From Candidatus Cloacimonadales bacterium (GTDB taxonomy: Bacteria > Cloacimonadota > Cloacimonadia > Cloacimonadales > JAFGVF01), in NCBI GenBank assembly GCA_963663475.2, contig CAXXJV010000001.1, positions 1,888,001 through 1,952,000 of the forward strand: a DNA stretch of 64,000 bases, in the 5' to 3' direction. The position numbers and the translations under genes were made by a program. The notes below the pieces were generated by a model, which was not told the DNA's origin, did no database searches, and saw nothing but the letters and a program-made list of their open reading frames with translations. Below, one piece after another: positions 42,393-63,420 of the stretch (the stretch's first letter is position 1; every line of letters starts with the position of its first letter).

Positions 42393-42555
42393 CCGAACCT
42401 CCTAAATTTTTATTGACATTGTTCGCAATGTTGCAAATAATGACTACTGAATCTATAAAGCTAAAAAATGCGAAACAAGTCAAGGAAAATATTCCATCAA
42501 TCGCATAAATGTGCAACAATGCGAAATAGAACTCAACCTCAAAATAGGAGATCAA
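42393..42555. promoter_or_regulatory. divergent lysis/lysogeny switch region with candidate operators
   Basis: TTGACA-17nt-AATAAT at 42413-42441. TGTTCGCAATGTTGCA (42420) is inverted relative to TGCAACAATGCGAAAT (42512); a third ATGCGAAACA lies at ~42468. Confidence 0.55.
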
Positions 42556-45016: not shown

Positions 45017-45094
45017 TATAACCTCCTTTAATATTTGATGTATTTAACAACTAGTTAAATTTTTGTCAAGATATAAAAGTTATATAAGGAAATG

Positions 45095-45411
45095 ATCGAG
45101 ATCTCGTTCGTTGTCTCAAATCAAGAATTTAAAACCGATATCTCACGTGAGACAGCGAGATATCGGTTGTTTTTTGAATCCTAAACCCACAACTAGCTAC
45201 TAACATAAAGACATACAATAGATTAGTAGCATAGCAAATTCCCCAAACAACCTGTAAAGCTAGCAGAGAAGTTGTAAAAAATACCTGCAAATGTAGTTAA
45301 AATGGAAATTTTGAGACATCGATTGAGACGGCGTGTAAGTGGCGAATAAATAACACTTTATACAAGTTAACTAGCGATGTCTCACATGGAAAACTTGGGT
45401 GTCACTTTTTA
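45095..45411 (+). repeat. Mu-like right end, copy 1
   Basis: Several TGAGAC/GTCTCA boxes; ends CTCACATGGAAAACTTGGGTGTCACTTTTTA; homologous to 50103-50404 and 60523-60841. Confidence 0.9.
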
Positions 45412-46240
45412 TTGGAAATTCATCTCCTGAGAGGATAAGATTCTGGTCATAGATTCCTAAGTCTTCCTTCTCATCAACAGTTGAGTAGATAGGCTGTATA
45501 AAGGCTATATCCTTATCTGTTTCATCATTCAAATCACCAACTGGTTCAATATTAAGAGGATAGCTAGTATCAATATTATTCTCCACAATAATCATTTCAA
45601 ATGTTCCTCCTAACATCACTCCCAAACCCCTGGTAGATGATTCTCGCTGGAGGATAAATCCCATATCATCACATCCGTCGCCATTTACGTCACCCAGACA
45701 TGAAGTAAACCATTCTCTGTCACTATAATATCCTGGACCTACCAGATAACCGTATTCATAATCATAATCAGTGAATTCAATTTCTGCATCAGGTCCACCG
45801 TAGTAGAAACGATAATAGGAATAGTCAGGGGCAGGAGAATCAAAAAGTAGATATGCACATATAGCAAGATCATCATAACCATCACCATTTCCATCTAGCT
45901 CAAGTAGATAGTCAGGGTGTGCATTTAAAACACCATTTTTTTGTTCTAATACTTGAATTAGGAGTTCCATATCCAAGTCATATTTATATTCCATTACATA
46001 TCAATATCTTTGTATAGTACTATCTTGAATAGAGTATATATCATGTAGTTTATTAATATTATATGTTTGCGATAAATTGTTGAACCATTGTTTAGTTGTG
46101 TTTATCGAATCACTATAGACATTATTTACCAATATTTCATCATCATTACTAAACACGATAGCTCTTTCTCTTACATCTTCAAAAGCATTTATACTTAATA
46201 TTAACAATACACAAATAATTATTAGAAATTGTTTTTTCAT
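45412..46240 (-). pseudogene. three-part chimeric pseudogene (secreted protease-propeptide-like N-terminus + FG-GAP fragment + phage gene fragment)
   Basis: 46240-45897 signal peptide and ...AHPDY with in-frame TGA at 46001-46003; 45522-45896 similar to 48337-48711; 45412-45521 similar to 19611-19720. Confidence 0.8.
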
Positions 46241-46250
46241 CTTCTTAACC

Positions 46251-47231
46251 TCACTTAACTACTATTTTTCTTGTTAGATTTTTATATGATTTGCCATCTG
46301 TTATTTTACTTTTTACTAGATAAACACCTGCTGAAACAGTTTTTGGCAATTTAATTTCTACGTTTGATGATTTACTTCCTGAAAGTTGCTTAGAGAATAA
46401 TCTTTGTCCTCTAAGATTAAAGACTTCTATATTTTCAATATATTGCCCCTCATTTGCTTTAACTGATATATCGGATACTGTTGGGTTCGGATAACAAGTG
46501 AATTCCAAGTTTGTTGTTTCACAATCGTGATTATCATTTTCAACTGGATTTATGAATTTAAAGATCAATCTTGGACCTAAATTATTCCCTAGTTCAAAAG
46601 ATGTTTGATAACTCATAGTATCTTCACAACCATCAAAATCTCCTATTGTATCAAAATAGAACATCAATTTAAAGCTATCCTCTTCATACAAGTATCTAGA
46701 CTTTTGGTAAGATGTAGTAATATCTACCTCTTTCCAACCTGGTTCAATATTTGCATCTGCATGAGATAAATAACCTACTTCTCTCATTTCCTCTGGAAAG
46801 AAAGAAGCATGCAGATCTGAAAAGCCATAATCTACAACAGCTATTTTTAATGGTAACTCTTGTCCATAAAATGTTGGATATTCATTAATCATATTATTAC
46901 CGATTGCTGTCCCTTGGTACATCTTTAATGTTACTGATTCTAGGATAAGATCTTCTGGAAGCTCTATAAAAGGGTACTCCTGATACCACCTATATGTAGA
47001 AGATTCATCACTAAAACTTGAGGTACAATCGCCAATACTTCGTTCTGGATTTTGATAGTTATGTAATAATATATACTCGTCATCGATATACTCACCCTGA
47101 AAATAGGTAACTTTATAGATTATCCTATCATAATCTGGATGAAGTAATTGCTCAACTTCAGTTATATTATTCCCAAATAATAGAATGTAAAACAAACTAC
47201 TAAACAAAATTAAAATATTCCTTTTGTACAT
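46251..47231 (-). CDS. secreted protein with T9SS-type CTD
   Basis: Signal peptide; SVTLKMY, GWKEVDIT, PRLIF (DNRLRE-like fold, tentative); CYPNP...VFNLRGQ...AGVYL. Confidence 0.8.
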   Translation of the reverse strand: MYKRNILILFSSLFYILLFGNNITEVEQLLHPDYDRIIYKVTYFQGEYIDDEYILLHNYQNPERSIGDCTSSFSDESSTYRWYQEYPFIELPEDLILESVTLKMYQGTAIGNNMINEYPTFYGQELPLKIAVVDYGFSDLHASFFPEEMREVGYLSHADANIEPGWKEVDITTSYQKSRYLYEEDSFKLMFYFDTIGDFDGCEDTMSYQTSFELGNNLGPRLIFKFINPVENDNHDCETTNLEFTCYPNPTVSDISVKANEGQYIENIEVFNLRGQRLFSKQLSGSKSSNVEIKLPKTVSAGVYLVKSKITDGKSYKNLTRKIVVK

Positions 47232-47336
47232 TTTTTTATTACTCCTTTTTTGGTATTTTATTTAGCTCCTAGTTTTGTTGTAACTAATTAAATCCTTAAT
47301 ATACAAGGATTACTATAACTGAGATGTTTTTTCATT

Positions 47337-49022
47337 TTAAAACTCCTTGTTCTTCTCCCTGTGATTCGGGAGATGGTTAAAATATTTAACAATAAATTTC
47401 GAAGTTGCCAAACGCTTGTTATTAATTTTGATAGTAGCGATATATAAGCCTGATGCTAATGATTCTAACTTAATAGCATCACTAGAGTTTTTGATATTTG
47501 AAGGGTTAAGTTTTCTCTCATGAACTTTCTGTCCTTTGAGATTATAGACGGAAACCATCGCGTTTTCTATATTCTTGGGTAAATGACCCTCAAGCTTTAG
47601 ATTTATCTTAATATTTTTACTGGAAACTGGGTTCGGATAGATGATTAAATTAGTGCTTGCTTGAGGAAATACATCGTTATCCTCATTACTTACGCTAGTA
47701 TCAGTCAGATTAGAATTACCGGCATAAATTGTTACATAACCCGGTGTAGCATAACCTCCCCAATCATCTGGAGCTGAAATAGCAATATCATCATAGCCAT
47801 CATTATTATAGTCTCCAACATTTACATTTAATCCAAAATATCCTGCAAACTCGGGATATATTGGACATGTTAGTTGTAAATCATAGATGCCGTTAGGATT
47901 TTCTCCACCCAACCATATAGCTGCTGTCCCATCCCATAAACCATAGGACGAATTACCTCCAACAAAATCACTATATCCATCTCCATTAAAATCACCGTGT
48001 TTTATCCATCGCCCAAAACCACCAGAACCCCTGATGAAAGTTAAATACGGAGGGTTACACTGAATTGGATATAGTGTCGAGTTTTCAAAACTATTTCTCC
48101 AAAGTGCTAACCCAAAATTATCAGAATAGTAATTTTCGGTAATTGGATAAAGAAAGTCAGGAAATCCATCTCCATTCATATCACCAACTGTTATCGCTCC
48201 ATTAAAATTATAAGTTTGTTCATAATAGCAGATAATTTCATACTCTGTTAGTGATAATGTAGAGTCTCCATAATATATTTTGGTGAAATCTTCATTAGAA
48301 TAATTTCGATAGCCTACAGCAAAATCAGCATAATTATCATCATTCAAATCACCAACTGGTTCAATATTAAGAGGATAGCTAGTATCAATATTATTCTCCA
48401 CAATAATCATTTCAAATGTTCCACCCAACATAATTCCTAAAGCTCTGGACATTGAATCTCGCGAAAGTATAAATCCCATATCATCACATCCGTCGCCATT
48501 TACGTCACCCAGACAGGAAGTAAACCACTCTCTGTCACTATAATATCCTGGACCTACCAGATAACCGTATTCATAATCATAATCAGTGAAATCTAGTTCT
48601 GCACCAGGTCCACCGTAGTAGAAGCGATAAAAATGAAAATCAGGATTGTTGAGACCAAACAAAATTACTCCCTCTATTGCTAAATCTTCATAACCATCTC
48701 CATTGACATCTCCACAAGAAAATACCCCTAAACTTACATTATAATCAGTCAAAGTTGTTATTTGGTTCGGCTCATTATTATACCCAAAATTTTCTCCTCC
48801 CCAAAAAAGATGAATTTCTCCTTGGTTTCCCTCTTCCATTGCCAAAACAAACAAATCATCAACTCCATTAGCATTAAAATCTAGGGTTGCCATCCCTTTA
48901 CCATATTCACTATTTCCCCAGGGTCCTTCAAAAGTATTCATTATCTCCATATAATTTTGGGCAAAGAGAGAAAGAGTGAAGAGAAGCATTACTGTAATAA
49001 GGCAATATTTTAACAATTTCAT
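47337..49022 (-). CDS. secreted FG-GAP (integrin-alpha-like) repeat protein with T9SS-type CTD
   Basis: Multiple GD(V/L/M/F/Y)NxDG..D repeats; IYPNP...VYNLKGQ...SGLY...KFIVK, with a short read-through tail. Confidence 0.88.
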   Translation of the reverse strand: MKLLKYCLITVMLLFTLSLFAQNYMEIMNTFEGPWGNSEYGKGMATLDFNANGVDDLFVLAMEEGNQGEIHLFWGGENFGYNNEPNQITTLTDYNVSLGVFSCGDVNGDGYEDLAIEGVILFGLNNPDFHFYRFYYGGPGAELDFTDYDYEYGYLVGPGYYSDREWFTSCLGDVNGDGCDDMGFILSRDSMSRALGIMLGGTFEMIIVENNIDTSYPLNIEPVGDLNDDNYADFAVGYRNYSNEDFTKIYYGDSTLSLTEYEIICYYEQTYNFNGAITVGDMNGDGFPDFLYPITENYYSDNFGLALWRNSFENSTLYPIQCNPPYLTFIRGSGGFGRWIKHGDFNGDGYSDFVGGNSSYGLWDGTAAIWLGGENPNGIYDLQLTCPIYPEFAGYFGLNVNVGDYNNDGYDDIAISAPDDWGGYATPGYVTIYAGNSNLTDTSVSNEDNDVFPQASTNLIIYPNPVSSKNIKINLKLEGHLPKNIENAMVSVYNLKGQKVHERKLNPSNIKNSSDAIKLESLASGLYIATIKINNKRLATSKFIVKYFNHLPNHREKNKEF

Positions 49023-49419
49023 AGTTCCTCCTATGAAGTTAACAAATTAGCATATCATTGTATAATCCAAAAATATGGTTTATGAGTTTAGATGTCAATA
49101 TTTATTTCAAACTTTTTATAAAATTGTATTTATCCCATTGTAAAGATGTTTTATTCTAAAAGTGTTTAGAAAGTGTATCGTTATTGAGGATTATTAGATG
49201 TGAATATGCCCTCACAAGACAGGATTAAAAAAGCAACTAGTTAGGGTTAAGTTTCATATAAAGTTTATTAGTAGTTAAGTGCAGACCATGCTGTCCACTA
49301 TCCGAAAGAAGAGGCATAAATCCCCTTTTAATATAGTCTAAACCTTAGAAGGATTGTTTTTTTTGATATTACGCCTTGAACTATTTTAGAGAAAGCCTAA
49401 ATAAATAATTTGGTAGTCT

Positions 49420-50091
49420 TTGAGTCTTCTACAACATCATCTTTTAATGAACCACCTTAAACTATCATAAAGTAATCGACCAGCAGTCCATTCTTGAAGT
49501 TGTTGAAATCAAAGGTCTTAATCTGTTCTAAAATCTCTATATTAATAGCCACAGGTAAGCATGAGACACCCCAAGCAGTTGACTTATGAGTTGGATTTTT
49601 AAAGTGAATCACATCATTACTTGAGAAGAATCTCTTTTCTCCATTTTTATAATGAAGGAAATCAGGTTTGAAGAATCCAAACTCATCATAGTTTTCTATT
49701 AATTGAACCTCTGTTGGTAGTAGTCTTTCCAAGCCAACCCACTCTCCTGATGCACTTCTCATTTTGATGATAAAGCCATTACCACATGCTAGATAGTATT
49801 TAAGCAGTTCTCCAAGAGTTGAAAGGATATCATCATTTCCAGGATACTGAGCTGATGCTAACCAATTTTTAAGAGAGGTATTTTTTACTTCAAGTTGCAT
49901 AAAACATGTGTTTACTTTAGAAGCAATACAACCTGAATGGTACTCATCTTTATCGATAAGTTTAAGTAGTTTGAAAATAGAGTAGGGAGCTGGTATAATT
50001 CTTTCTTTCTCATAAGATTTGGATAATTTTCTTCTACCTTGCCACTTATAAGAATCTAAGTTAACAGGCTCAGGCGAGTAGTTCTTTTTAA
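49420..50091 (-). pseudogene. phage portal protein fragment, copy 2
   Basis: Colinear with 28238-28811; 5' end replaced by the right-end repeat; nonsense TAA at 49457-49459 (V*GG). Confidence 0.85.
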
Positions 50092-50102
50092 ATAGTTTTA
50101 AT

Positions 50103-50404
50103 ATCGAGATCTCGATCGCTGTCTCAAATCAACATATGCAAACCGATATCTCAGCTGAGACGGTGAGATATCGGTAGTTTTTTGAAGCATAAACCCACAA
50201 CTAGCTACTAAGATAAAGACTTACAGGAGATTAGTAGCTTAGCAAACTCTCCAAACATCCTTTAAAACTAGCAGAGAAATTGTAAAAAATACCTGCATAA
50301 GCTGTTAAATAGGAAATTTTGAGACATCGTTGAGACAGCGTGTAAATAACTAATAAATAGCACCGATATACATCTCACAGGGAAAACTTGGGTGTCACTT
50401 TTTA
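50103..50404 (+). repeat. Mu-like right end, copy 2
   Basis: Same boxes and hairpins; ends GGAAAACTTGGGTGTCACTTTTTA. Confidence 0.9.
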
Positions 50405-50884
50405 GACATCATAATTCTCTTAATTTTACAATTTAGTATCCTCAACATTTCTTAAACTTCTTAAATATAAAAAGATAATACTAAAAACATAGCCACACTG
50501 CAAGTGAGGACAAATTTGCTATAGAATTACTTATCATTTGCACTATATTAAAGAAAATTTTTATTAATTTCAACACCATAATTCTTCAAATAATTGATAG
50601 ATTCCAAAGAAACTTTTTCCTGAGTTTCCCAATATCACCTCGCATCCCTACTGTAATATTTTTTTTAAATTTAAAAAAATTAATTCTGCACGATTTAGAA
50701 AGCCACTATTTATAACACTATCCATAATTCTGTAAGACAATTTATTAGGGTACTATTTTTCCTCATATATGAATAAATTTATTAAAGAAATTTAATTTCC
50801 TATTAATCTTCATTTAATATAGGGTGGGTATATTCCATTTGTGAAGTTTAGTTTTCGTGTAAAAAAACAAAAAGGTGGAATAAT

Positions 50885-51829
50885 ATGAATACTAATATCA
50901 AGAAAGCAAAGCAAGCTATAATTAGAGGAATCTGTTTTGATAAACTTATAACTGTTTTACTCATCATTCTATTTTTATCTAGTAACTTATCTGCTCAGAA
51001 TCTGTTAAAATCTATTCTCAACACGAAATCAGACAAGTCGGAGAGCGAAGAAGGAACTAAGATAGGATTCAATCCTGAGAATTTTATTAATCCAATACTA
51101 AGCACAAATCCCTATCACCCGCTAAAACCAGGACTACAATGGGTTCGTGGTGGAACTACTGAGGTAGGTTCCAGAGTAGTTCCTCATGAGATCATTACTA
51201 CAATGACAGATGTAATCAGAATAATCCAGGGGGTACCAACTGTTGCAATGCTGGATGAATCTACAGATTCAGGAGAGATGTCTCAAGTTAGTATTGATTA
51301 TCTAGCCTTGGATAAAGATGGCAATGTGTGGATTTTAGGCGGATATTCTGAAGAATATGAAGGGGGTTTATACACAAACCTGGATGATGCCTGGCTTGGA
51401 GAAGGTAAAGGATCTGAGGTTGGTATTCTGATGCCTTCTGAGGTTACCATGGAAACACCTCGTTGGTTTGTAGGAAAATCTCCTGGTGAAGCACCTACTG
51501 TAGCCGAACCAGTTGAGATAGGCATGACCCAATGTGTTGAATTCGACTGTTTTGATGATGTTTGGGTAATTCGAGAAGGTGAAGTAGGAGCTATCGATAA
51601 CGAGTTCAAATATTACGCTCCAGGTGTGGGTGTTATTTATAATGTACCCCAAGACGAAAGCTTGCATAAAGATTTCTTTGAATTATTGAACTTCGTTGAA
51701 CTTAGTCCAGAAGGATTGGCAAAGGCTAGTCAAACTGTTTTGAAACTAGAAGAACATGCTCGTAAGAAAACAGCACGAAGAGTTTTCGGTCCAGAGCCTG
51801 TTTCTAAGAGGGCTGAGAAAAATGAATAA
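50885..51829 (+). CDS. exported acidic hypothetical protein
   Basis: Signal-like N-terminus; NPYHPLKPG, DYLALDKDGNVW..G, KYYAPGVG motifs; first gene of the ABC operon. Confidence 0.7.
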   Translation: MNTNIKKAKQAIIRGICFDKLITVLLIILFLSSNLSAQNLLKSILNTKSDKSESEEGTKIGFNPENFINPILSTNPYHPLKPGLQWVRGGTTEVGSRVVPHEIITTMTDVIRIIQGVPTVAMLDESTDSGEMSQVSIDYLALDKDGNVWILGGYSEEYEGGLYTNLDDAWLGEGKGSEVGILMPSEVTMETPRWFVGKSPGEAPTVAEPVEIGMTQCVEFDCFDDVWVIREGEVGAIDNEFKYYAPGVGVIYNVPQDESLHKDFFELLNFVELSPEGLAKASQTVLKLEEHARKKTARRVFGPEPVSKRAEKNE

Positions 51830-52493
51830 CACTGTTGTAAGTCTGACAAGTGTCTCCCATTCGTATAAAACAGATAATGGAGTTATTCCAGTGCTTGAAA
51901 ATGTGAATCTTACCATTCGACACGGAGAAAAAGTAAGCTTGGTTGGGCCTTCTGGATGTGGAAAATCAACTCTTCTGTCTCTAATTGCTGGCCTTATTAA
52001 ACCTTTTGAAGGAGATATCTGTATCGCTGGTGATTTAATGAGTAAACTTAAGGATAAAGACCGTGCCCAAATTCGAGCTAAAAAAATAGGGATTGCTCTC
52101 CAATCCGACAATCTTATACCCTTTCTTACTTCACTCGAAAATATCGAATTAGTTTTATCATATGGTAGATATGGGAATAAGCATGAAATAAGGAAACAAG
52201 CGGAACACCTGCTTAACAAGTTCGGATTATCTCACCGTTCTCAGCACCTTCCAAGACAATTATCTGGTGGTGAAGCACAACGCGTTGCTTTAGCAGCATC
52301 CGTAGCAAACAGCCCCTTGTTATTGTTGGCAGATGAATTCGGGGCTCAACTGGATGCAGGGACAGCTAAGCAGGTTATAAGTGAAATTTTACAAGAAGAT
52401 TTTGCGGTATTGTTTGTAACTCACAATTTAGAACAAGCTCAATTAACTCCAAGCAGATATGAAATCAAAAATGGAAGGGTGGAATTGATATGA
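51822..52493 (+). CDS. ABC ATPase (LolD/MacB-like)
   Basis: GPSGCGKS, LSGGE, LLADE, VTH; likely start ATG 51822. Confidence 0.9.
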   Translation: MNNTVVSLTSVSHSYKTDNGVIPVLENVNLTIRHGEKVSLVGPSGCGKSTLLSLIAGLIKPFEGDICIAGDLMSKLKDKDRAQIRAKKIGIALQSDNLIPFLTSLENIELVLSYGRYGNKHEIRKQAEHLLNKFGLSHRSQHLPRQLSGGEAQRVALAASVANSPLLLLADEFGAQLDAGTAKQVISEILQEDFAVLFVTHNLEQAQLTPSRYEIKNGRVELI

Positions 52494-53188
52494 ATAGAAA
52501 GAAATCAATCTCAGCTAAGAATGTAGTTGTTGAATATAAAACATCAGAAGGTACTATTCGAGCTTTGGAATGCAAAGACTTGTATGTACAAAGCACTTCA
52601 AGCGTTGCAGTGATGGGATCGAGTGGCTGTGGAAAATCGACTCTTCTAGGTTTGTTGGCTGGTATAGCAGTACCTACACATGGTAGCATTAGAATTGGTG
52701 ATGTAGAGTTATCTTCTCTTAGCGAAAAACAAAGAACAAGTTTTAGGAGAGATAATCTCGGAATGGTTTATCAAGCAGATAATCTATTACCCTTTTTAAC
52801 AGTTGAAGAGAATATTAGATTAAGCCTTGGTATTTCAGAATCAAATACCAAAAACACAAGTAATCGTTTACATGATCTTCTTGATCAACTGGGCTTATCA
52901 GGACTTGAAAAACGACTTCCAGATCAGATGTCTGGTGGACAAAGGCAAAGAGTGGCAATTGCCAGGGCTGTATTTCATGAACCAAGAATTATACTTGCAG
53001 ATGAACCAACAGGGGCACTTGACGAACTAAATGCACAAAAGGTTATTAATATTCTCATCAGGTTACAGCATGAGATTGGGGCTACACTTGTTGTTGTAAC
53101 TCATGATCCCAAAATAGCTAAACTGCTGGATACAACTATATATATTAAATCACCTGAAAGAAAAATAAAAGAGGACCTCTATGTTTAA
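52490..53188 (+). CDS. ABC ATPase (LolD/MacB-like)
   Basis: GSSGCGKS, MSGGQ, LADEPTGALD, VTHD. Confidence 0.92.
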   Translation: MNRKKSISAKNVVVEYKTSEGTIRALECKDLYVQSTSSVAVMGSSGCGKSTLLGLLAGIAVPTHGSIRIGDVELSSLSEKQRTSFRRDNLGMVYQADNLLPFLTVEENIRLSLGISESNTKNTSNRLHDLLDQLGLSGLEKRLPDQMSGGQRQRVAIARAVFHEPRIILADEPTGALDELNAQKVINILIRLQHEIGATLVVVTHDPKIAKLLDTTIYIKSPERKIKEDLYV

Positions 53189-56100
53189 AAGATATGTACT
53201 ATTAGACCTGATAAGAAATCCGAGAAGAACTCTTTCTACATTAACAGGAGTTATGCTAGGTGTTGGCCTTCTTTGCGGTGTGCTGTTTTTTGTAGATGGT
53301 CTTTCAACATCAATGACACAAAGATCTGTAGCACCTTTAGCTATCGATATGCAAAGAATCATCAGTAAACGTATTGGCAGCTTTGTATCTCTCACTCAAA
53401 CTATCGCTTATGTGGACAGAGTTAATACACCAGATATAGTTGAAATAAAGCTCAAACTTAAAAATGAAGGTAATTTTACTGCAAATGACGTAACTGTTCG
53501 TTCTCGTCTGAAAAAGGAACTTATGTTTATTAAGGGATCAGCAGAAATAGATGGAAAACCCTTAGATAAATTTGAGGATAATCCTTTCGCTCATGGTTTG
53601 GGAAGAACTGGATATAATCTTGGTTCAGTAAAACCTGGAGAAGCTCATTTTCTTAGCTACAGAGCAAAAGTTGAAAATAATGCTGAAATTGAGAAAAATC
53701 TAATTACCACTTTCTCCACCCGAGAATCTTTAATGCCGGTAAAGGCAAATAAACCTCAACAAGTACCACTCTCAGAACTATCGGATATGATCAGTAAGAT
53801 TGAAGGAGTGAAACTTGCTGAGCAGCTTTCTTATGCAGATCTTGGATATAATAAGATTACCTTCAAAAATAACTCTTCACCTGGAATGACCAGGATATTT
53901 GGGCTGAATAACAGTTATGCAAAGCACGATGAAACAATTTCAATAACAAGTGGAGAACTTATCGATAATGGAGCAGTGCTAAGTATTGAAGCTTCAAGAA
54001 TTATCAAAGCATCAATTGGGGACTCAATTATAATAAGTCTTCCAGACAGCTCTTTTCATAAAATTATGGTTACTGGGATTGCTGATTTAAGTCGTTCTCG
54101 AGCTCTTTTTAACAGCCGTCGAGGTGCAGACCTTGAGGAATTCTTATATATTCCAAGCTCTTTGATCATAACTTCAAAATACTTCGAAGAAATTGTTTTT
54201 CCAGCTTATCAGTCTGCAGCAAGTGAAAACGAAGATCGTTTGAAAAATCCTCCTGTTCGTGAAATAGATATCTGGCTTGATCATGCTCTTTTAAATGGTT
54301 CTCCTGAAATTGCATTAACTGAAACCAAACAAATAAACAGTAGAATAAAAGAAGTAGCTGCTCATCAAGATTATGTTCTTGATAACATCTCCAATACTCT
54401 GGAAGTAGCAGTTGCAGATGCACGTACTGCAAAAAAACTTTTCTTCTTCTTAGGAATTCCAGGAGGATTTCTAGCAGCAATGCTTGCAGCTTATGCGGCT
54501 AATGTTCTAGCGTCAGCCCAGCGTCGCGAACAAGCAACTCTCAGAGTTAGAGGTGCTTCAGGATCACATTTATTTAAGATGCTGGCATTAAGAACTTTCC
54601 TTATCACAACTATTGGAACAATTTTTGGATTATTATTAGGTTTTGTTATTTCAAGTGCCATCCTGGGATATGACTCAATGCTGAATGCTGGTTTCTTAAG
54701 GCTTTCTGTTTCAGGATTGCTGGGAACAATGGGAGGCTTTCTAGCAACTGGAATTTCATTGTATTTGACGGGGCATGTTTCTATTGTCAGACAAATTAAT
54801 GAAGAACGAGCTAGGTTATCTGAACGAACTCCTTATTGGCGCAGGTTAAATCTGGATATATTCAGTTTTGCAATTCTTGTAATAGGAACAGCAATTGCTT
54901 TATTAACGAACTCCTTTGAAGGTTCTAGTGGATCTGTCTATTTTGGCAAAGGTGTAGATCTGAATCTTATTATGTTGGTTTTTCCTGTCATGTTGTGGTT
55001 CTCAGGAAGCTATCTTTTTGCTCGCTTTTTAGTAATTTTTCTATCTAATCTTAGAAGAAAACAAAGAATTGGTATCCTAAAACCATGGCCAGGAGTTTTT
55101 TGGCTTAGCATAAACCGCAGACCCTGGCCCATTGCATATGGTTCCATAATCATTTCTCTAATTGTTGCTCTTTCGGTTAGCTTATCTGGATTCACTGCTT
55201 CATACAACAGAGCAAAAAAGAATGATGCTCTTTATGCTGCAGGATCAGACATCCGAATTATTCCTGATCCAACATCAATGAGTAAAATGCAGATATCCGA
55301 CACACATAAACTGAAAGTTGATGGTATAAAAGAAGTGACTCCTGTTTACTACAGTGTTCAGAATGTCATTATCAGAAGCAACCGAACATCAGATCCTGCA
55401 AATATGCTGGCTGTAGATCCTGATTCTTTTGGTAAAGTTGCACCATTGTATGATCTTGATTTCAACGACATTACTGCTGAACAATCTCTTAGCATTTTAA
55501 AAAACGAACAAGAATCTGTTTTTCTGAGTGATGATATGGCCGATTTCCTGCAGGTTGAAGTTGGAGATACTTTACATGTTCTTCTTGAGAGAGGTTCAAA
55601 CAAGCAAACTGAGATAATGCAAATCATTAAAGGTACCTTTAAGCGACTTCCAGGTTGTCCTGATGGTGCACATGCATTCATGTCAATTCATGTATATTCG
55701 GAAAAAATTCCAGACAAAGCTCCTGATTTCTTTCTCGCATCAGTGCAAAACGATCAGGTTGAGAATTTTGCAAGTATTGAGAAAGATTTAGCAAATTCAG
55801 TTGGTAAGTTTTTCGAATATAGATTGGAAAGCAAGTATACTGTTCTTTCTAAAGATCAATCAAGTCTCGCAGCATTAAACATTGCCGGTCTGGTTAAATT
55901 AGACTCCATCTTTGCCTTTGTTATGGCAATAGTAACGATTGGTATATTTGTCTTTGGTCTACTTTTCCAAAGAAGAAGAGAATACATCACCTTGAAAGCA
56001 CAAGGGCTCAAACCGAACATCATCAGGTCATTAATAGCTGCAGAGGCTAGCAGCGTTGCTTTAGGCGGTAGCATTTCAGGTATTCTTGTAGGTATTACAA

Positions 56101-56282
56101 TGGGCTTTTACTTTGTAAAAGTTTTACAACCTTTATTCGTTCATGTTCCAGTATATGTAATATCTCTACAATCTATTTTTCTTCCAATTTCACTTGTTTT
56201 TATTGGAACTGTAATCTCTTCATATACTGGTTCAAGACAAATAAACTCACTCAATCCAATGGAACTATTACGAGATGAATAA
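53181..56282 (+). CDS. double FtsX/MacB-family ABC permease
   Basis: Two RRE..TL...G repeats with TM clusters and large periplasmic domains; ends P.ELLR.E. Confidence 0.88.
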   Translation: MFKRYVLLDLIRNPRRTLSTLTGVMLGVGLLCGVLFFVDGLSTSMTQRSVAPLAIDMQRIISKRIGSFVSLTQTIAYVDRVNTPDIVEIKLKLKNEGNFTANDVTVRSRLKKELMFIKGSAEIDGKPLDKFEDNPFAHGLGRTGYNLGSVKPGEAHFLSYRAKVENNAEIEKNLITTFSTRESLMPVKANKPQQVPLSELSDMISKIEGVKLAEQLSYADLGYNKITFKNNSSPGMTRIFGLNNSYAKHDETISITSGELIDNGAVLSIEASRIIKASIGDSIIISLPDSSFHKIMVTGIADLSRSRALFNSRRGADLEEFLYIPSSLIITSKYFEEIVFPAYQSAASENEDRLKNPPVREIDIWLDHALLNGSPEIALTETKQINSRIKEVAAHQDYVLDNISNTLEVAVADARTAKKLFFFLGIPGGFLAAMLAAYAANVLASAQRREQATLRVRGASGSHLFKMLALRTFLITTIGTIFGLLLGFVISSAILGYDSMLNAGFLRLSVSGLLGTMGGFLATGISLYLTGHVSIVRQINEERARLSERTPYWRRLNLDIFSFAILVIGTAIALLTNSFEGSSGSVYFGKGVDLNLIMLVFPVMLWFSGSYLFARFLVIFLSNLRRKQRIGILKPWPGVFWLSINRRPWPIAYGSIIISLIVALSVSLSGFTASYNRAKKNDALYAAGSDIRIIPDPTSMSKMQISDTHKLKVDGIKEVTPVYYSVQNVIIRSNRTSDPANMLAVDPDSFGKVAPLYDLDFNDITAEQSLSILKNEQESVFLSDDMADFLQVEVGDTLHVLLERGSNKQTEIMQIIKGTFKRLPGCPDGAHAFMSIHVYSEKIPDKAPDFFLASVQNDQVENFASIEKDLANSVGKFFEYRLESKYTVLSKDQSSLAALNIAGLVKLDSIFAFVMAIVTIGIFVFGLLFQRRREYITLKAQGLKPNIIRSLIAAEASSVALGGSISGILVGITMGFYFVKVLQPLFVHVPVYVISLQSIFLPISLVFIGTVISSYTGSRQINSLNPMELLRDE

Positions 56283-56321
56283 AAAAATATTTATGGAAAA
56301 CTAAATAAATTAGGAGGATAG

Positions 56322-57020
56322 ATGAAAAATCTAAAAAAAATATTGTTGATGGAAGTTGTTGAAAAACATATCATTATACTAGTGATTATCGTTTTAGCTT
56401 TCGGTTCGCTACAGGCTCAAATGAAACCAGAAATCCTTTTGAACATTGAAACTTCTGGGAATGAGATTCTAAGTGATGATTACGAATATGGCATTTCACC
56501 CCAGTTAATTTTTGAATGGGAATCAATTAATCTTTTAGCTGAGACAAAATGGTATTTACCTTTATATCCTGAATCTAATCTCGGAGAAGTAGAGCTTAAT
56601 GTGGAACGTGTTTTGCATTCCAAATTATGGTGGTTAGATTTTAAGCTGGGTAATACAAATTTGTGGATCTTTGAAGATAGTGAACTTGAAGGAGTCGCTT
56701 TTTTCAATCCAATAATGTATATATCCAATATAGAATTTGAATTAGGCTTTGAAACTCAGTATATGCCAGATTTAGCCGTCGAGTTTGCTCCTTCTATCGT
56801 TTATGAATTTGCCCTACCTCGTGGAATAGCAGAAATTGGAGTAGGTCAGACTATTGTTCTATATGATGAATTTGCAAGAGGGGAAACAGAATTTCCTATT
56901 ACATACGAATTTGATGCTGGAGAATATTCAACCCTAGGATTTGAATTTACTCCATTAATCACTGAAGATAACGAGTTTAATCTTAATATCATGCTCAAAG
57001 CTGAAATATCTTTTGATTAA
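56322..57020 (+). CDS. acidic exported protein, possible outer-membrane beta-barrel
   Basis: Signal peptide, alternating beta pattern, penultimate Phe. Confidence 0.5.
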   Translation: MKNLKKILLMEVVEKHIIILVIIVLAFGSLQAQMKPEILLNIETSGNEILSDDYEYGISPQLIFEWESINLLAETKWYLPLYPESNLGEVELNVERVLHSKLWWLDFKLGNTNLWIFEDSELEGVAFFNPIMYISNIEFELGFETQYMPDLAVEFAPSIVYEFALPRGIAEIGVGQTIVLYDEFARGETEFPITYEFDAGEYSTLGFEFTPLITEDNEFNLNIMLKAEISFD

Positions 57021-57117
57021 AAGTTCGGACTAATAAAGCTTTAATGATAACATAAGATAGAACTATATGAAGTGGATCAAGAACTATAGAAAAAATTAAA
57101 AAAAGAATGGAGGAGAC

Positions 57118-57870
57118 ATGTGTTTACAAAAAGAGCTTGAAAAACAAGGCAACTGGCTTTTTACTTACAGAAGTTATTTGCCGATATTAATATTAGCTGT
57201 AGGTATTGTCCTATATTTTAGAAATTATATTCACCTTGAGATGTTTAGTAGTAAAATTGTGATATATAAGTCATTTTATGCATACTTATGCCTCTTCCTT
57301 AGTCTTTCAGGTGTTTTAGTTAGAGTATATACAGTAGGCTATACACCCAAGGGTACTTCTGGTAGAAACACAAAAAAACAAGTAGCACAAAGCTTGAATA
57401 TGACAGGGATATATTCAGTGGTTCGTCACCCTTTATATTTGGGTAATTTCTTAATCTACCTTGGTATTTGTTTATTAATTGGACATTTATGGTTTGTCAT
57501 TATATTTTGTTTGCTGTTTTGGATTTACTACGAAAGGATCATGTATGCCGAGGAGCAGTTTTTATTTCGTAAATTCGGAGAGGATTTTACGAATTGGTCT
57601 GCAGAAATTCCAGCTTTTATCCCAAGATTTAAATCATTTGTAAAACCAGCACAATCATTTAGCTGGAAAAAGGTCCTAAGAAAAGAAGCTGATGGTATTT
57701 TCGCCTTATCCTGTATTTTTTTCTTTTTCAATATTGGAAGAGAGATAATTGAGAATAACGGTCATTTTAACTTGATTCTTGGATTTATCTTTCTATTTAT
57801 TACTATAGGATACATTTTTGCCAAGTATTTAAAGAAAAAGACCCGTTTTCTTAATGAAGTGGAGAAATAG
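57118..57870 (+). CDS. ICMT/PEMT-family membrane methyltransferase (LmtA lipid A phosphate methyltransferase-like)
   Basis: GNWLF.YRSYLP, TSGRNT..Q.A..LN.TG.YS.VRHPLYLGN, YERI..AEE.FL..KFG. Confidence 0.8.
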   Translation: MCLQKELEKQGNWLFTYRSYLPILILAVGIVLYFRNYIHLEMFSSKIVIYKSFYAYLCLFLSLSGVLVRVYTVGYTPKGTSGRNTKKQVAQSLNMTGIYSVVRHPLYLGNFLIYLGICLLIGHLWFVIIFCLLFWIYYERIMYAEEQFLFRKFGEDFTNWSAEIPAFIPRFKSFVKPAQSFSWKKVLRKEADGIFALSCIFFFFNIGREIIENNGHFNLILGFIFLFITIGYIFAKYLKKKTRFLNEVEK

Positions 57871-57953
57871 CCCGTTATAATGATTGTAGAAGCTTAAATT
57901 CTACTTACCAAATTCGCTTGAAATATGTGTAATTTAGAGAGAGGAAGATTTAA

Positions 57954-58625
57954 ATGAGAATTTTATTGGTCGAGGATGATAAAAAAATTGCTGGTTTTAT
58001 TACCAAAGGTCTTCAGGAAGAAAACTATGCAGTAGATATTTTTCACAATGGAGAAGACGGTCTATATTGGGCTCTAGTAAATGAATATGACTTGATTATT
58101 TTAGATATAATGCTGCCTCAGATGAATGGTTTAGAAATCTGTCGGGAAATCAGACGCAATCAAAAAAACACACCAATTATTATTTTAACAGCAAAAGGGT
58201 CTATTGAAGATAAGGTTAAAGGCTTGAGGATTGGGGCAGATGATTACTTGAGTAAACCATTTTCATTTGATGAATTATTAGCTCGTATTCAAGCTTTGTT
58301 AAGAAGATCGCAGGAATATCAGTCTCAAATTTTAACAGCAGCAGATTTAGAACTTGATGTCGGCTCACGAAGAGTCTCCCGATCAGGGAAAGAGATAATC
58401 CTATCAGGTAGAGAGTATGGTCTCTTGGAATTTTTGATGAGGAATAAGAATAAAGTCGTAACTGAAACTCAGATAATTGAACATGTCTGGGATATGAATT
58501 CTGAGTTGTTTACGAATGTCGTAAATGTATATATCCACCATCTACGAAAAAAAATAGATGAGGAAAGCTCTCAGAAGTTAATCTATACGCTGCGCGGTCG
58601 AGGATATATTTTAAAGGATGAATAA
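57954..58625 (+). CDS. OmpR-family response regulator (CusR/CzcR-like)
   Basis: LLVEDD, LDIMLP, GADDYLSKPF, wHTH NVVNVYIHHLRKKID. Confidence 0.93.
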   Translation: MRILLVEDDKKIAGFITKGLQEENYAVDIFHNGEDGLYWALVNEYDLIILDIMLPQMNGLEICREIRRNQKNTPIIILTAKGSIEDKVKGLRIGADDYLSKPFSFDELLARIQALLRRSQEYQSQILTAADLELDVGSRRVSRSGKEIILSGREYGLLEFLMRNKNKVVTETQIIEHVWDMNSELFTNVVNVYIHHLRKKIDEESSQKLIYTLRGRGYILKDE

Positions 58626-58631
58626 ACCACT

Positions 58632-60095
58632 ATGATTAATCATTCAATTCGTAATCGTTTAACAATATATTTCGCTTCAATAGTTGCAATAATTCTTCTT
58701 CTGTTTGATCTTCTAATCATATTGAGTTTTAGGGACAATCTATTAGATAATATTGAATCTTCACTATTAAGCAGTTGTTCGGTTATTACAGGAGAGATTT
58801 TTAAGCAGGATATATCAGGGAAACTCATTGAAGAAGATAGTGAATATGAAGATGAAATATCTAAGATCTCCGAGCTTTTCCCTGTAGAAATAGCAGAATT
58901 AATAGAATCAATGGGGCATTTCGCACAGCTACTCGATGTTCAGAATCCTGCGAAACCTGTTATCATTGCCAGAGCACATTTGAATGAAAATATTAATATA
59001 CCATATAACCCAGAGTTGGTGCAGAAAATTATAGGAAGCAAATCATCCAAGGATAAATATTTGTTCAAAAAATCACAGGAATTAATGCTGGTCAACCTCT
59101 ACATTTTGGATCATCTGGGAAATAAATTTGTATTACAAATTGCAGAAACCACCGTTAATTTTAAAAATGATTTAAAGTGGATTTTTACAAGTTTATTGAT
59201 AGCTTCACCACTTTTTTTACTCATCCTTTCCATATTTGGGTATTTTATGATAAAAACTGCCTTCAAGCCTGTCACCAATATTGTGGAAGATGTAAATAAG
59301 ATTACAGCCAAAGATCTTAGTTTACGGATAAAATCAATGAGCGGAAAAGATGAGATTGGGAAATTAATTGATACTTTCAATAATCTTATTGAACGCTTAG
59401 AAAGATCATTCAATTTAACAAAACAGTTTTCTATTGATGTATCCCACGAGCTCAAAACACCCTTAACCGTTTTAAGAGGAGAGATAGAGGTGATCCTGCG
59501 TCACTCTAGGTCGAAGGAAGAATATGTAAGAACATTAAATAGCCTAGTAGAAGAGGTGATCAAATTGCAGGCAATCATTGATAATCTGCTTCTTCTGGCA
59601 AACCTGGATGCATCCCGCAGACTGCCAGAATTTGAAGATGTAGATCTGAATGAACTTATATTAGAAACATTTGAAGATCTGCATTGGCTTGCTACCCAGA
59701 AAAATCAGAATATTGAGATTAGAGAAATACCTTCTATCAGCATTCATGGAGATAAGACGCTTCTCATCAGGCTATTCAGCAATATTCTGGAAAATGCAAT
59801 TAAATATTCTCCCAGAAACGGAAAAATCAGGATTTTCTGTAATATATCAAAAGACTCCATGGAAATCAATGTGCAAGATAGCGGACCCGGAATAAGCAAA
59901 GAATATCATACCAAAATTTTTGAGAGGTTTTTCCGTATCAATGATTTATATGAGCCCACCAAATCCAAAAGCTCTGGCTTAGGGCTAGCTTTAGCAAAGA
60001 AGATAGCTGACCTGCATAATATTACCATCAAACTGAAAAATTCATCTCCTCAGGGCTGCATTTTTTCTTTATCAGCTCCTTTTAAATATGATTAA
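58632..60095 (+). CDS. HAMP sensor histidine kinase (CusS/CzcS-like)
   Basis: SHELKTPL, NILENAIKY, DSGPGI, FERFFR, GLGL. Confidence 0.93.
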   Translation: MINHSIRNRLTIYFASIVAIILLLFDLLIILSFRDNLLDNIESSLLSSCSVITGEIFKQDISGKLIEEDSEYEDEISKISELFPVEIAELIESMGHFAQLLDVQNPAKPVIIARAHLNENINIPYNPELVQKIIGSKSSKDKYLFKKSQELMLVNLYILDHLGNKFVLQIAETTVNFKNDLKWIFTSLLIASPLFLLILSIFGYFMIKTAFKPVTNIVEDVNKITAKDLSLRIKSMSGKDEIGKLIDTFNNLIERLERSFNLTKQFSIDVSHELKTPLTVLRGEIEVILRHSRSKEEYVRTLNSLVEEVIKLQAIIDNLLLLANLDASRRLPEFEDVDLNELILETFEDLHWLATQKNQNIEIREIPSISIHGDKTLLIRLFSNILENAIKYSPRNGKIRIFCNISKDSMEINVQDSGPGISKEYHTKIFERFFRINDLYEPTKSKSSGLGLALAKKIADLHNITIKLKNSSPQGCIFSLSAPFKYD

Positions 60096-60299
60096 GAAAC
60101 TTTAATATAAATATATGATGAAATTTTCATTTTAACGCTTTTATAACAATAATATAGCTTTGCTATCAAATTATACTAAACATAATATTAATAATATATC
60201 TGTTATTGTTTATAGAATTTTAGAAATAAGTATTTTAATAGTAAGTGTTTGAGTAGAATAGGGACAGTATAACCATGTCTCTATTTGAAATGTAAAAAG

Positions 60300-60445
60300 T
60301 TGGCATACCCCATTTTTTTATGAAAAAATGATCCGTATTTGTAGCTTGTTATGATATTCCCTCTTGTGTGGTAAATTTTATTCATTTTAGTGTTATTAAA
60401 TATAGTTTTATAATTCTACTCAGTTTTAACAGGATTTTTATTTAT
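60300..60445 (-). mobile_element. isolated 3' end of the same IS4-like family as 31361-32910
   Basis: Reverse complement aligns with ~32770-32910 and ends TCATAAAAAAATGGGGTATGCCAA. Confidence 0.7.
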
Positions 60446-60522
60446 AGTCGTCTCTTTCTCAACTTACACTTCCTTAGCTTGGAAGAGAGAAAAAAAGATA
60501 GAGACATTTAGTATAGCAAATT

Positions 60523-60841
60523 ACCAAGGTCTCGCTCCCTGCTCAGATCAACAATCTAAAACCGATGTCTCACTTGAGACGGCGAGATCTCGGTGGCTTT
60601 TTTCGAATCCCAAACCAACAACTAGCTACTAAGATAAAGACTTACAGGAGATTAGTAGCTTAGCAAACTCTCCAAACATCCTTTAAAACTAGCAGAGAAA
60701 TTGTAAAAAAATACCTGCAAAAGCTGTTAAATAGGAAATTTTTAGACATCGGTTGAGACAGCGTGTAAATAACTAATAAATAGCACTTTATAAGAAGCTC
60801 CTATAGATATCTCACATGGAAAATTTGGCTGTCACTTTTTA
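60523..60841 (+). repeat. Mu-like right end, copy 3
   Basis: Central part nearly identical to copy 2; ends CTCACATGGAAAATTTGGCTGTCACTTTTTA. Confidence 0.9.
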
Positions 60842-60842
60842 A

Positions 60843-61841
60843 ATCCTCTTCGAACACTTAGTAGCAAATATTAACATAGACAGCGAAATTGGTTCTTTAA
60901 CCCTAGATGAAGTTTCTGGTAGTGCAGAGATTGATTCCGAAATTGGTTCTATTAAGGTAAAAAAGGGTGACTTCCAGAACTTTTTTTGCTCTACTGAGGT
61001 TGGGAATATAGAGATTTTAGGAATTAAAGCAGTAGCCTTAAAGTGTGAAACAGAAGTAGGTCAAATCAATATAAAAGAAGCAGAAGTATCCAATGCTACC
61101 ATTAGTAGTGAAACAGGTAACATCGAATATCAACTACTTCCTAACAAGCAAAATCAAACTAAAATATCAGCAGAAATCGGTAAAGTAAAAATTATCATTC
61201 CTCATGAAATTAACTTAGATTTAAAAGCAACTTCAGAAATGGGTTCGGTTAATTCTTCTCTTAAGAATGTTGTCTCTTCCCCAATCGATGATGGTGTAAT
61301 CTTAAAAAGTGAAACAATAAATAATGAAGCAGGAAGTGCAACTATCAAGGTTACCACTGAAATTGGATCCATAACTCTACTTAATGAAGATACTCTTCCT
61401 AATGAAGAGAAAAGACAGTTTAAAAATAACAAGTTGAATGAGGAGATTATTCGAGCCATGAATGAAATGAGCAAAGTAACAAAGGTGCTAGGTTCTCCAG
61501 CCTTAAGAAAGTCCATTGGTGGCGCTTTTGCTAACTTGGGAGAAGTTATTAAGTCTAGGGTTCAAACAGCCTTAAAAGAGGCCGATATTACGATTAAAGA
61601 GTCAATGAAAGATATGAAGGCTGATTTGCAACAGCAAAGACAAGATTATAAATCAGAAAATGTCCGTAACAGACAAGAAGCTCAACAAGGAAGAGATTTT
61701 TCTAGCAGAAATAGTATGTATAGACCTGAAGATAGGTTATCAGATAATGAGAAAAGTAGATTAAAAATTCTCGATCTTCTTGAGCAAGGAAAAATAAGTC
61801 ATGAACAGGCAGAGAAACTCCTTAAAGCAATAAATAAATAA
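60843..61841 (+). pseudogene. 5'-truncated DUF4097-like beta-repeat protein with C-terminal 'ILDLLEQGKIS.EQAEKLL' motif
   Basis: Frame is open from 60843 (ILFEHLVANINIDSEIGS...) with SEIG repeats and begins at the element end. Confidence 0.75.
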
Positions 61842-61867
61842 ATAAGATCTCTAAGCTATTATAATTG

Positions 61868-62100
61868 AACCCAAGTTTTGCAGTAGAACTTCAATGAAAA
61901 TATTGTTCTATACCTGAAGTTTTTCTGCATTTCTTGGGTTCATTATCTTATCATTCCTTCCTCTTCCCCTCCTCCTTAATACTCATCTTAATTAAAAATC
62001 GAATAATATTTAGGATGTGTGAGAAGGAGCATGGGAAGACAAAACAAAGAGGATAAAACATAATCCCGAATGGTGCAGTAGAGCTTTACAGAAGAGTGCA
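61868..62100. repeat. REP/MITE-like element, same family as 13977-14319
   Basis: Hairpin AACCCAAG...CAGTAGAACTTCA...TGAAGTTTTTCTGCA...CTTGGGTT; CTTATCAT(T)CCTTC pyrimidine tract; TAATCCCGAATGGTGCAGTAGAGCTTT. Confidence 0.65.
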
Positions 62101-62970: not shown

Positions 62971-63420
62971 GGTCTTGCTTTGCAAGAATTAAAAATGAAA
63001 AATAGAAGAGTAAAACTTTCAGGCGAATTTACACGAATGTAGGGGAGATAGATTTTTTGCCCTTCTATAAAACAAGATAAATACATCTTTCGTCGGACGG
63101 TGGACATTCTGTCTGCCATTCTCTTAAACTCCCCGCTTTAGTACTGAAGGTAGGTTTAAAGAGGGGTGTGGCTTGGTATTTCCAAGACAGGGTGTTTTGT
63201 GAGTCAAGCAGGGATTAATAAAATAATCAGGCTGATTACAGCCTGATGGAAGCAGAGACACTCCACACATAGTTTCGCTCATCTGGAATATGTAAACTAT
63301 GGACTGGTAACACCCTTGCCACCACTCCATAAACCATAAAGCTATGCTATTGGAAAAGGTAGCATACTGATTGAATAGTCTTAATTCATTTCAATTAAAA
63401 AATAATACATAATAATTGAC

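Follow-up and report, generated by a model that had tools for sequence, protein, structure and literature searches.

A probable stack of co-oriented Mu-like prophage remnants beside ssrA in a Cloacimonadales genome

The closest described precedents for the locus reported here are the Mu-like transposable phages and the rearrangements made at transposon ends. Mu termini read 5'-TG...CA-3', the mobilization by Mu of host DNA lying between co-oriented Mu copies is a classical phenomenon, and mini-Mu derivatives and mini-Mu-mediated transduction are laboratory constructs. Serial accretion at one attachment site is known from integrase islands at tRNA and transfer-messenger RNA (tmRNA) genes and from Tn7-like arrays at attTn7. 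In Mu, attL lies beyond the c repressor (in a passage of PMC5977238), and adjacent deletions, which are efficient and frequent, begin exactly where the transposon ends (in a passage of PMC2723962). We analyzed a 64,000-nt window of a Candidatus Cloacimonadales bacterium genome (GenBank assembly GCA_963663475.2, contig CAXXJV010000001.1, positions 1,888,001 to 1,952,000 of the forward strand; coordinates below are those of the window), in which an island beside the tmRNA gene ssrA holds three direct copies of a ~317-bp module. We favor, with a probability of roughly 0.6, the reading that this island is a stack of remnants from at least three different members of one Mu-like prophage family, all in one orientation and built by end-linked accretion. 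Co-oriented one-end arrays of this kind are an unusual variant of known prophage decay combined with transposon-end rearrangement.

The three copies of the module, referred to as c-ends, are the following.

45095 to 45411, plus strand: c-end copy 1, the end of element P1, with the inner palindrome ATCGAGATCTCG, paired GAGAYNNCG sites, and the terminal site ...TGTCACTTTTTA
50103 to 50404, plus strand: c-end copy 2, the end of element E2 (alignment, profile)
60523 to 60841, plus strand: c-end copy 3, with a gene conversion patch at ~60639 to 60718 (alignment, profile)

MAFFT alignment, a repeat finder, and a profile built from 10 copies all recovered the three ~300-bp direct copies on which the original prediction was based. 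The profile matched the window exactly three times (45096 to 45411, 50104 to 50404, and 60524 to 60841; E values of 1e-97 to 1e-104), and its next-best matches (E > 0.2) were internal palindromes of the c-end copies themselves. The palindrome ATCGAGATCTCG forms the inner start of the module. At the outer side, all three copies share the terminus ...TGTCACTTTTTA and are followed by unrelated DNA, as had been claimed. In 10 of 10 copies, from four genomes, homology persists through ...GTCACTTTTTA and diverges only after the final A of ...CTTTTTA; none continues past it, and the 10 copies have 9 distinct outer flanks, the only shared one being that of copy 2 and its counterpart in a related genome (OY759, below). 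The c-end tips are precise transposon termini. The motif GAGAYNNCG occurs at 22 sites in the window against 2.9 expected, and 21 of the 22 lie inside the three c-end copies. A second motif, GTGAC-N5-8-TTTYC, is confined to ends: it was found at 17932 (plus strand), at an inverted partner at 17979 (minus strand), and at the three c-end tips (minus strand), with a chance expectation of 0.1 to 0.5 in shuffled sequence. The c-end DNA had no match among known phage records, and the sole Rfam match was the tmRNA. A hairpin of the module was considered as a terminator and rejected, since a terminator scan of 44900 to 45500 found none.

The identity of the module follows from its neighbors in P1, the element that ends at copy 1.

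18053 to 34700, minus strand: distal P1, with mostly unknown open reading frames (ORFs), a tail-fiber-like ORF, type IX secretion C-terminal-domain proteins, a portal-like fragment, and a short M15 peptidase (Pfam, PHROGs)
28159 to 28869, within distal P1: portal-like fragment, 236 amino acids (Pfam, PHROGs)
34720 to 35601, minus strand: MuF-like protein (Pfam, PHROGs)
35615 to 37141, minus strand: TerL (Pfam, PHROGs)
37134 to 37595, minus strand: TerS (Pfam, PHROGs)
38305 to 39405, minus strand: DUF3164 protein (Pfam, PHROGs)
39416 to 40129, minus strand: MuB-like AAA+ protein (AAA_22/TniB; phrog_296, "DNA transposition protein," E = 1e-27)
40138 to 42165, minus strand: MuA-like transposase (Pfam rve and Mu-transpos_C; phrog_310, E = 5.5e-86)
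42511 to 43284, plus strand: CI/LexA-type S24 repressor, divergent from MuA and facing the c-end (Peptidase_S24, Phage_CI_repr, phrog_4)
43286 to 45016, minus strand: GmrSD-type defense nuclease in the cargo slot that separates the stop codon of the repressor from the c-end (Pfam GmrSD_N and GmrSD_C; PADLOC Orf5/HEC-06/SspE models)

P1 has a DDE transposase with a Mu C-terminal domain, an adjacent MuB-like AAA+ protein, and a divergent, end-proximal repressor that only one cargo gene separates from copy 1. The ends therefore belong to a MuA-type transposable element, which upholds the link to DDE transposition made earlier, and the ~317-bp module is the repressor-proximal end, equivalent to Mu attL, of a Cloacimonadales Mu-like element family. 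The original prediction had called these copies "right ends"; that name does not stand, because Mu attL lies beyond the c repressor and the Mu convention makes this the left, repressor-proximal end, hence "c-end" here. The P1 core (34720 to 42165, minus strand) also gave a phrog_38 match (E = 8e-61). Its MuA is full length relative to homologues of 660 to 690 amino acids. In all, 596 homologues reached E ≤ 0.001; of the 120 listed, most of those that carry a name are from Cloacimonadota. Virion-related genes comprise TerS, TerL, the MuF-like protein, the 236-residue portal-like fragment, and a 172-residue tail-fiber-like ORF; Pfam and PHROGs, which possibly missed remote homologues, gave no capsid or tail matches in P1. 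Judged by this gene content, P1 is probably defective as a phage, though its transposition genes are full length.

P1 thus shares with Mu and the saltoviruses (D3112, B3, BalMu-1, and phiRTG5) the MuA-type DDE transposase with a Mu C-terminal domain, the MuB-like AAA+ protein, an end-adjacent repressor divergent from the A and B genes, the order TerS, TerL, MuF, and ends with repeated short sites and what may be a common terminal repeat. However, several differences are apparent. First, its MuA reaches only 21 to 32% identity with phage proteins of the collection, in which its end DNA has no match. Second, the ends finish in ...CTTTTTA (10 of 10 c-ends) instead of CA. Third, no 5-bp duplication is seen, and P1 has no recognizable complete portal, capsid, or tail genes. 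Finally, co-oriented end copies accumulate although Mu target immunity disfavors insertion near ends. These elements are a new, distant branch of Mu-like transposable prophages. A literature search found no paper with both "Mu-like" and "Cloacimonadota," and the present account is the first to describe, at the level of the ends, a family of Mu-like elements from Cloacimonadales.

When species-representative genomes were scanned once for the c-end tip pattern, nine loci were returned. Three of these (in Prevotella, Blackburnbacteria, and Gallionella) had no similarity to the window and were chance matches. The remaining six lie on three complete Cloacimonadales chromosomes and contain seven further c-end copies beyond the three in the window.

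OY759729.1 (OY759), loci L002 to L005: four c-end copies within 17.6 kb
OY782499.1, locus L006: one c-end copy
OY782831.1, locus L009: two c-end copies, 2.7 kb apart, the second found by BLAST

Within each array the copies are co-oriented (3 of 3 in the window, 4 of 4 in OY759, and 2 of 2 in L009). At L006, a 3.7-kb mini-element occupies the same ssrA site with the same opposite, S-side junction as in the window; in it, the S-side repeat (sites A and B, described below) is combined with a 3' segment of the repressor (95% identical), cargo of three other genes, and a c-end whose right flank differs from that in the window. This layout means that the S-side repeat of P1 and copy 1 belong to one element type. 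The relatives carry elements of 2.8 to 3.7 kb with both end modules and without the A and B genes, in which they resemble mini-Mu derivatives; unlike these, they are natural and long-lived and have ORFs of their own, and their mobilization would presumably occur in trans. A 494-residue ORF of the OY759 and L009 mini-elements has no homologue in the window.

Comparison of the copies showed that they are not duplicates of each other. The window copies are only 81.1% (copies 1 and 2), 82.2% (copies 1 and 3), and 84.7% (copies 2 and 3) identical, whereas copy 1 is 88.6% identical to the L006 copy, copy 3 is 94.4% identical to OY_d of OY759, and the outer 227 bp of copy 2 with its flank are ~99% identical to OY_c of OY759 (the shared block differs at 6 sites over its first 500 bp). 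Each window copy is closer to a copy in another genome, and therefore the copies represent separate acquisitions and not local duplications. Duplication of a single end by unequal crossing-over or segmental duplication, which direct repeats within one 16-kb stretch might have suggested, is already contradicted by these identities and by the unrelated DNA on both sides of each copy, and is scarcely credible. The serial accretion proposed in the original prediction is largely right, in the sense of successive arrivals of family members.

The order of truncation can be read from the DNA that each c-end abuts in the window and in the relatives.

45412 to 50102, minus strand: remnant of a second related element, E2, its S side cut by copy 1, without early and packaging genes
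60843 to 61841, plus strand: a DUF4097/SHOCT gene cut by copy 3, of which the 3' 332 codons are left
OY759: junction inside an S-side module
L009: junction at the left boundary of an S-side module
L009: junction 128 bp inside an S-side repeat
OY759: junction into a homologue of window positions 32018 to 32269

The pieces of E2 are 88 to 93% identical to P1, and everything between its portal-like fragment and its c-end is gone, the fragment being joined 8 bp from the c-end. The junction at copy 1 falls inside a minus-strand FG-GAP gene of E2: positions 45412 to 45521 are 92.7% identical to 19611 to 19720, and the match opens at the first base past the copy 1 terminus. Similarly, the frame at 60843 to 61841 matches positions 99 to 246 of the 247 positions of the Pfam DUF4097 profile and corresponds to residues 109 to 440 of an intact 440-residue homologue (98.5% identical over 332 residues), so that copy 3 adjoins codon 109; the missing 108 codons were found neither in the window nor in the loci compared. 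Both truncations had been claimed, and both are borne out. The four further c-end junctions in the relatives enter element-derived DNA of the same orientation.

No 5-bp target duplication accompanies these junctions. The sequence left of 17925 is TCTCT, compared to TTGGA, GACAT, and AATCC on the right of the three copies, and the L006 element is flanked by CCTTC and CTCCC. Among all S-side and c-end flank pairings in the window, L006, and OY759, the best was a 4-of-5 match (CCTCT versus GCTCT, OY759 element 1), which was rejected as its implied target is nonsensical; the absence of duplications reported in the original prediction is therefore borne out for the window. The junctions thus cut into a gene of a related element and into a host gene, in neither case with a target duplication, and missing duplications are expected if the junctions were remade by deletion. 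Adjacent deletion is a plausible source to judge from the junction sequences, which resemble transposon-promoted adjacent deletions (Mu, Tn3, IS1, and Tn5) in lying exactly at the terminus, with neighboring DNA removed and no duplication. They differ in that the deleted partner is repeatedly a co-oriented family member, the process is iterated, and the deletions are deduced from the junctions. The earlier suggestion of adjacent deletions and tandem products is thus plausible in its first half, but tandem products of one element are excluded by the 81 to 85% identity of the copies.

In the mechanism that we envisage, each remnant would retain the repressor-proximal ~317-bp end with its predicted transposase-binding repeats, equivalent to Mu attL. 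The newest element would be P1 (up to 45411), with intact MuA, MuB, repressor, and packaging genes, and the two older elements would have lost their S sides, each being cut exactly at the terminus of its left neighbor by junctions presumably made by transposase. Two routes may have led there. By the first, intramolecular replicative transposition would cause an adjacent deletion outward from the c-end. By the second, a newcomer would insert into a resident, whose S side would then be lost by recombination between co-oriented homologous parts, a route that would also account for the common orientation. The data do not separate adjacent deletion from nested insertion and loss; in a transposable phage, nested insertions were 0.4% of events (in section 3.5 of PMC5977238). 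Later homologous recombination with incoming related DNA would have reshuffled the pieces, and gene conversion and horizontal import, including that of DNA left of 17925, also shaped the island.

Several points weigh against the accretion of transposase-cut remnants. First, 3 of the 5 junctions into element DNA lie within ~200 bp of the neighbor's S-side repeat, yet DNA beside Mu ends is a poor target owing to target immunity (in passages of PMC7350765 and PMC2837660), and the terminal domains are the sparsest for insertions (in section 3.5 of PMC5977238). Second, neither a target duplication nor an empty site was recovered among the loci compared, and therefore no single junction is proven to be transposase made. 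Third, adjacent deletion alone does not predict one shared orientation. Fourth, the junction events in the four genomes are not independent, as two junction types are common between genomes. Fifth, positions 17548 to 17924 are 93.6% identical to L006 compared to 79% for mfd at the DNA level, so some of the spread was by recombination and not by transposition from 17925. Finally, the module stops as sharply on its inner side as on its outer side (6 inner flanks), which a pure decay model covers only via a cargo slot and selection for complete ends. Across the four genomes, the remnants of the family accumulate as co-oriented one-end arrays, whereas Mu target immunity would predict the reverse.

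The DNA between copies 2 and 3 bears on whether the solitary c-ends have been used since.

50405 to 60522, plus strand: cargo or host-like block with an unknown ORF, two ATP-binding cassette (ABC) ATPases, a 1,033-residue FtsX-type permease, a methyltransferase-like membrane protein, a response regulator, and a histidine kinase

The GC content of this block is 0.347, compared to 0.32 to 0.33 around it. Positions 50178 to 60841, comprising the outer 227 bp of copy 2, the 10.1-kb ABC-transporter/two-component region, and copy 3, are 98.5% identical to OY759729.1 (155 differences in 10.7 kb). The Mfd protein of that genome is only 85% identical to that of the window, and therefore the block was exchanged recently between species. 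The match ends exactly at the copy 3 terminus, 60841, beyond which the window has the DUF4097 gene and OY759 a FadL-type gene; the arrays also lie in different neighborhoods, beside ssrA in the window and tRNA-Met in OY759, and their left parts are unrelated or only 82 to 92% identical. This exact stop is the best evidence that a distal c-end may have been a recently active boundary. The same comparison revealed exchange within arrays. Copy 3 and OY_d have 15 differences, all in alignment columns 134 to 213 (~60639 to 60718), where copy 3 equals copy 2 (50218 to 50297) and OY_d equals OY_b, its own array neighbor, a pattern that points to at least one recent gene conversion between array members.

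These observations have also suggested composite mobility, in which solo c-ends serve as alternative outer ends and the S-end, paired with copy 2 or 3, moves larger units with cargo. The transferred block, the identity stop at copy 3 with its new flank and neighborhood, and the internal c-end (copy 2) to the left of the cargo are all as this predicts. However, no whole unit was seen twice: a search for a second site of the composite unit found the right terminus and 10.7 kb shared with OY759 next to a new right flank, with the left part unshared. Moreover, there is no target duplication, the S-side module is truncated at 17838, and the profile detected no internal c-end remnant in the cargo slots of P1, L006, and L009. 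The right-flank gene can also be accounted for otherwise. The truncated DUF4097 gene has a 98% identical homologue in another large genome, whereas no Mfd homologue on large contigs exceeds 92% (best, 88%), so the copy 3/DUF4097 junction may have been imported ready-made by recombination. Composite mobility is therefore unlikely as an account of the island, and it is equally doubtful that a resident Mu-like module uses solo c-ends to capture the 10-kb ABC-transporter/two-component block and move it between species; current mobility of the nested 27.5-, 32.5-, and 42.9-kb units of the original prediction, the S-end pairing with any c-end, is possible. If alternative ends were in use, the locus would be a natural counterpart of mini-Mu-mediated gene transfer and could be a route that places cargo, including defense genes, just inside the c-end. 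Were the distal ends to stay usable, the arrays would serve uncultured anaerobic-digester bacteria as a device for gene capture and transfer; otherwise, the locus still preserves a clean natural record of gene conversion and of repeated rearrangement at transposon ends.

The opposite end of P1 is less clearly defined than the c-ends.

16454 to 16803, plus strand: tmRNA gene ssrA, downstream of which the island begins (ARAGORN; Rfam RF00023, 175 bits)
17548 to 17834, plus strand: C-terminal fragment of an IS200/RayT-like Y1 transposase gene with a REP-like hairpin (17814 to 17834) abutting the S-side module
17838 to 17924: inner 87 bp of Sm, a conserved module of ~190 bp located before the S-side repeat and truncated in the window
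17925 to 17985, plus strand: S-side end repeat, with site A (17925 to 17950) and its inverted copy B (17961 to 17980), a near-palindrome TGTGAC...GTCACA (motif scans)

In reverse complement, the c-end tip (TAAAAAGTGAC...) is similar to the tip at 17925 (TAAATTTGTGAC...). The S-side profile matched the window once (17830 to 18128), and neither it nor the motif scans found additional left ends near 50405 or elsewhere in the window. Thus, there is a single opposite-end site in the window, as the original prediction held. Its status as a terminus does not survive the homology test that the c-ends pass: GTGAC-N5-8-TTTYC is found in opposite orientations at 17932 and at the three c-end tips, but homology runs leftward of 17925 for 87 to 190 bp in 5 of 5 S-side copies from four genomes, each of which is preceded by Sm, and 17925 is therefore not established as a terminus. 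OY759 and L009 retain ~100 bp more of Sm, including the terminal-like motif TAAAAGTGAC-N7-TTTCC, and in OY759 a third terminal-like site lies 125 bp further out, just after the group II intron that follows tRNA-Met. In the window and L006 the module is cut at 17838 by the REP-like hairpin beside the RayT-like gene fragment, and the S side of the window may be incomplete. The region at 17548 to 17834 is 93.6% identical to L006 5915 to 6349, where the ORF is whole (208 amino acids, Pfam Y1_Tnp).

The similarity outside 17925 also fits a history of recombination-anchored import, in which donor-array fragments, for example, packaged from the c-end together with S-side DNA, enter a related cell and replace the resident S side. 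Homologous recombination would fix the fragments on the side of the S-end or the tRNA gene, whereas the join at the c-end would be end made or illegitimate. This would account for the constant S-side junction, the common orientation, the missing duplications, and the position beside RNA genes. Consistent with it, ssrA is 92.8% identical to that of L006 compared to 67 to 79% for neighboring genes, and the noncoding DNA outside 17925 is more alike between species than mfd (93.6% versus 79%); gene conversion shows that the copies recombine. On the other hand, we know of no case in which a Mu-type transposase joins one end only, although no literature search was aimed at this, the loci linked to RNA genes number only two, and import is indistinguishable from later recombination on an array built in another way. 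As the origin of the array, import is rather improbable.

Other observations concern the S side. The S-side repeat itself is a palindrome of two tips, and OY759 has three or four left-type terminal motifs (L003 6966, 7091, 7226, and 10160) in one orientation, within 260 bp, at the left margin of its array. Some junction points have, just to their left, short sequences similar to the tip of the c-end (top 0.3 to 2.5% of the null). Two candidate degenerate c-ends, one at 18036 to 18052 and one left of the OY759 S-side module, were rejected, as shuffled sequences reached their local-alignment scores in 184 of 500 and 62 of 500 trials, respectively; in an end-anchored comparison they ranked in the top 0.3% and 2.5% of window 37-mers, which is suggestive only. 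A 38-codon ORF in the S-side module was likewise rejected as a gene (4 synonymous and 10 nonsynonymous changes between OY759 and L009, counted by eye).

At the inner side of the c-end module, six different flanks meet it at one place. Three of the six belong to a variable slot that runs from the repressor stop codon to the module, and a fourth is a deletion junction (portal-like fragment, 8 bp, module) common to three genomes.

Window 43286 to 45016: cargo slot with the GmrSD-type nuclease
L006 6954 to 9691: cargo slot with a Stk2-like Ser/Thr kinase and two unknown ORFs
L009 8121 to 9708: cargo slot with two unknown ORFs
Window 49518 to 50102, L003 9515 to 9715, and L009 12189 to 12389: portal-fragment/c-end junction

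To judge from its contents, the slot looks like a site inside the prophage at which defense genes are swapped, and the locus may be of interest for this property as well. The portal-fragment junction suggests a long-lived lineage of transposase-less mini-elements, because its three copies are 83 to 85% identical and have different outer flanks.

The sharpness of both boundaries (9 outer and 6 inner flanks) could alternatively mean that the 317-bp module is itself the unit, either as a small nonautonomous mobile element or as an integron-like cassette recombination site. Its single orientation within each array and the gene-sized cassettes of 2.8 to 10.4 kb between copies in OY759 and L009 would agree with this. 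However, the module has no flanking duplication (the 5-mers beside it differ), a profile search found no inverted tip copy at its inner boundary, and no recombinase besides MuA was found among 54 scanned frames. In the collection scan, every further copy lay beside Mu-like remnants, all of them in three more Cloacimonadales genomes, and the sharp inner boundary coincides with the repressor-to-end cargo slot. We consider an independent module very improbable.

The accretion of Mu-like remnants also resembles accretion at an attachment site, in that a co-oriented stack lies beside an RNA gene and its older members are degraded and keep one end. It differs in that the outer c-end junctions lie at unrelated sequences and that no integrase, TnsD/TniQ-type targeting protein, or border repeat of the ssrA 3' end was found. 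Specifically, the 54 translated frames from 14438 to 63999 included no tyrosine or serine recombinase, and the transposition proteins among the scanned frames were of two kinds only, MuA and MuB, neither TniQ nor TnsA giving a match. A blastn comparison of 1 to 17924 with 17000 to 45411 gave only self-overlap and 155-nt repeats; comparisons with 45412 to 50404 and 50405 to 64000 gave nothing from the ssrA-adjacent 17000 to 17924, ssrA itself (16454 to 16803) lying outside that subject.

The surroundings of the arrays show further features. Directly after ssrA, at 16821 to 17191, are two and a third tandem copies of the 155-nt unit (98% identical), an 85-nt relative of which follows ssrA in L006 and also occurs in L009 without a nearby ssrA. 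Between ssrA and the island lie a small GIY-YIG ORF (17268 to 17507) and the truncated RayT/IS200-like gene with its REP-like hairpins. Further upstream, a 40-nt inverted repeat (14175 to 14255; 90% complementary, 1-nt spacer) precedes a hybrid histidine-kinase gene. In OY759, two group II introns that are 99.9% identical and encode a 421-residue reverse transcriptase/maturase (L003 4834 to 6956 and L002 11785 to 13907) bracket the array, and the first sits right after the tRNA-Met terminator hairpin. Left of the L009 array (2690 to 5949) are a RhuM-family gene and a TOTE-type primase-helicase gene, both candidate defense genes. A search for synteny on the right flank found only similarity of type IX secretion domains. 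Proteins with a type IX secretion C-terminal sorting domain, several of them with FG-GAP repeats, are encoded at 20468 to 24904, 33195 to 34295, 46251 to 47231, 47337 to 49022, and 62188 to 62970, and such proteins likewise occur in and beside the OY759 and L006 elements.

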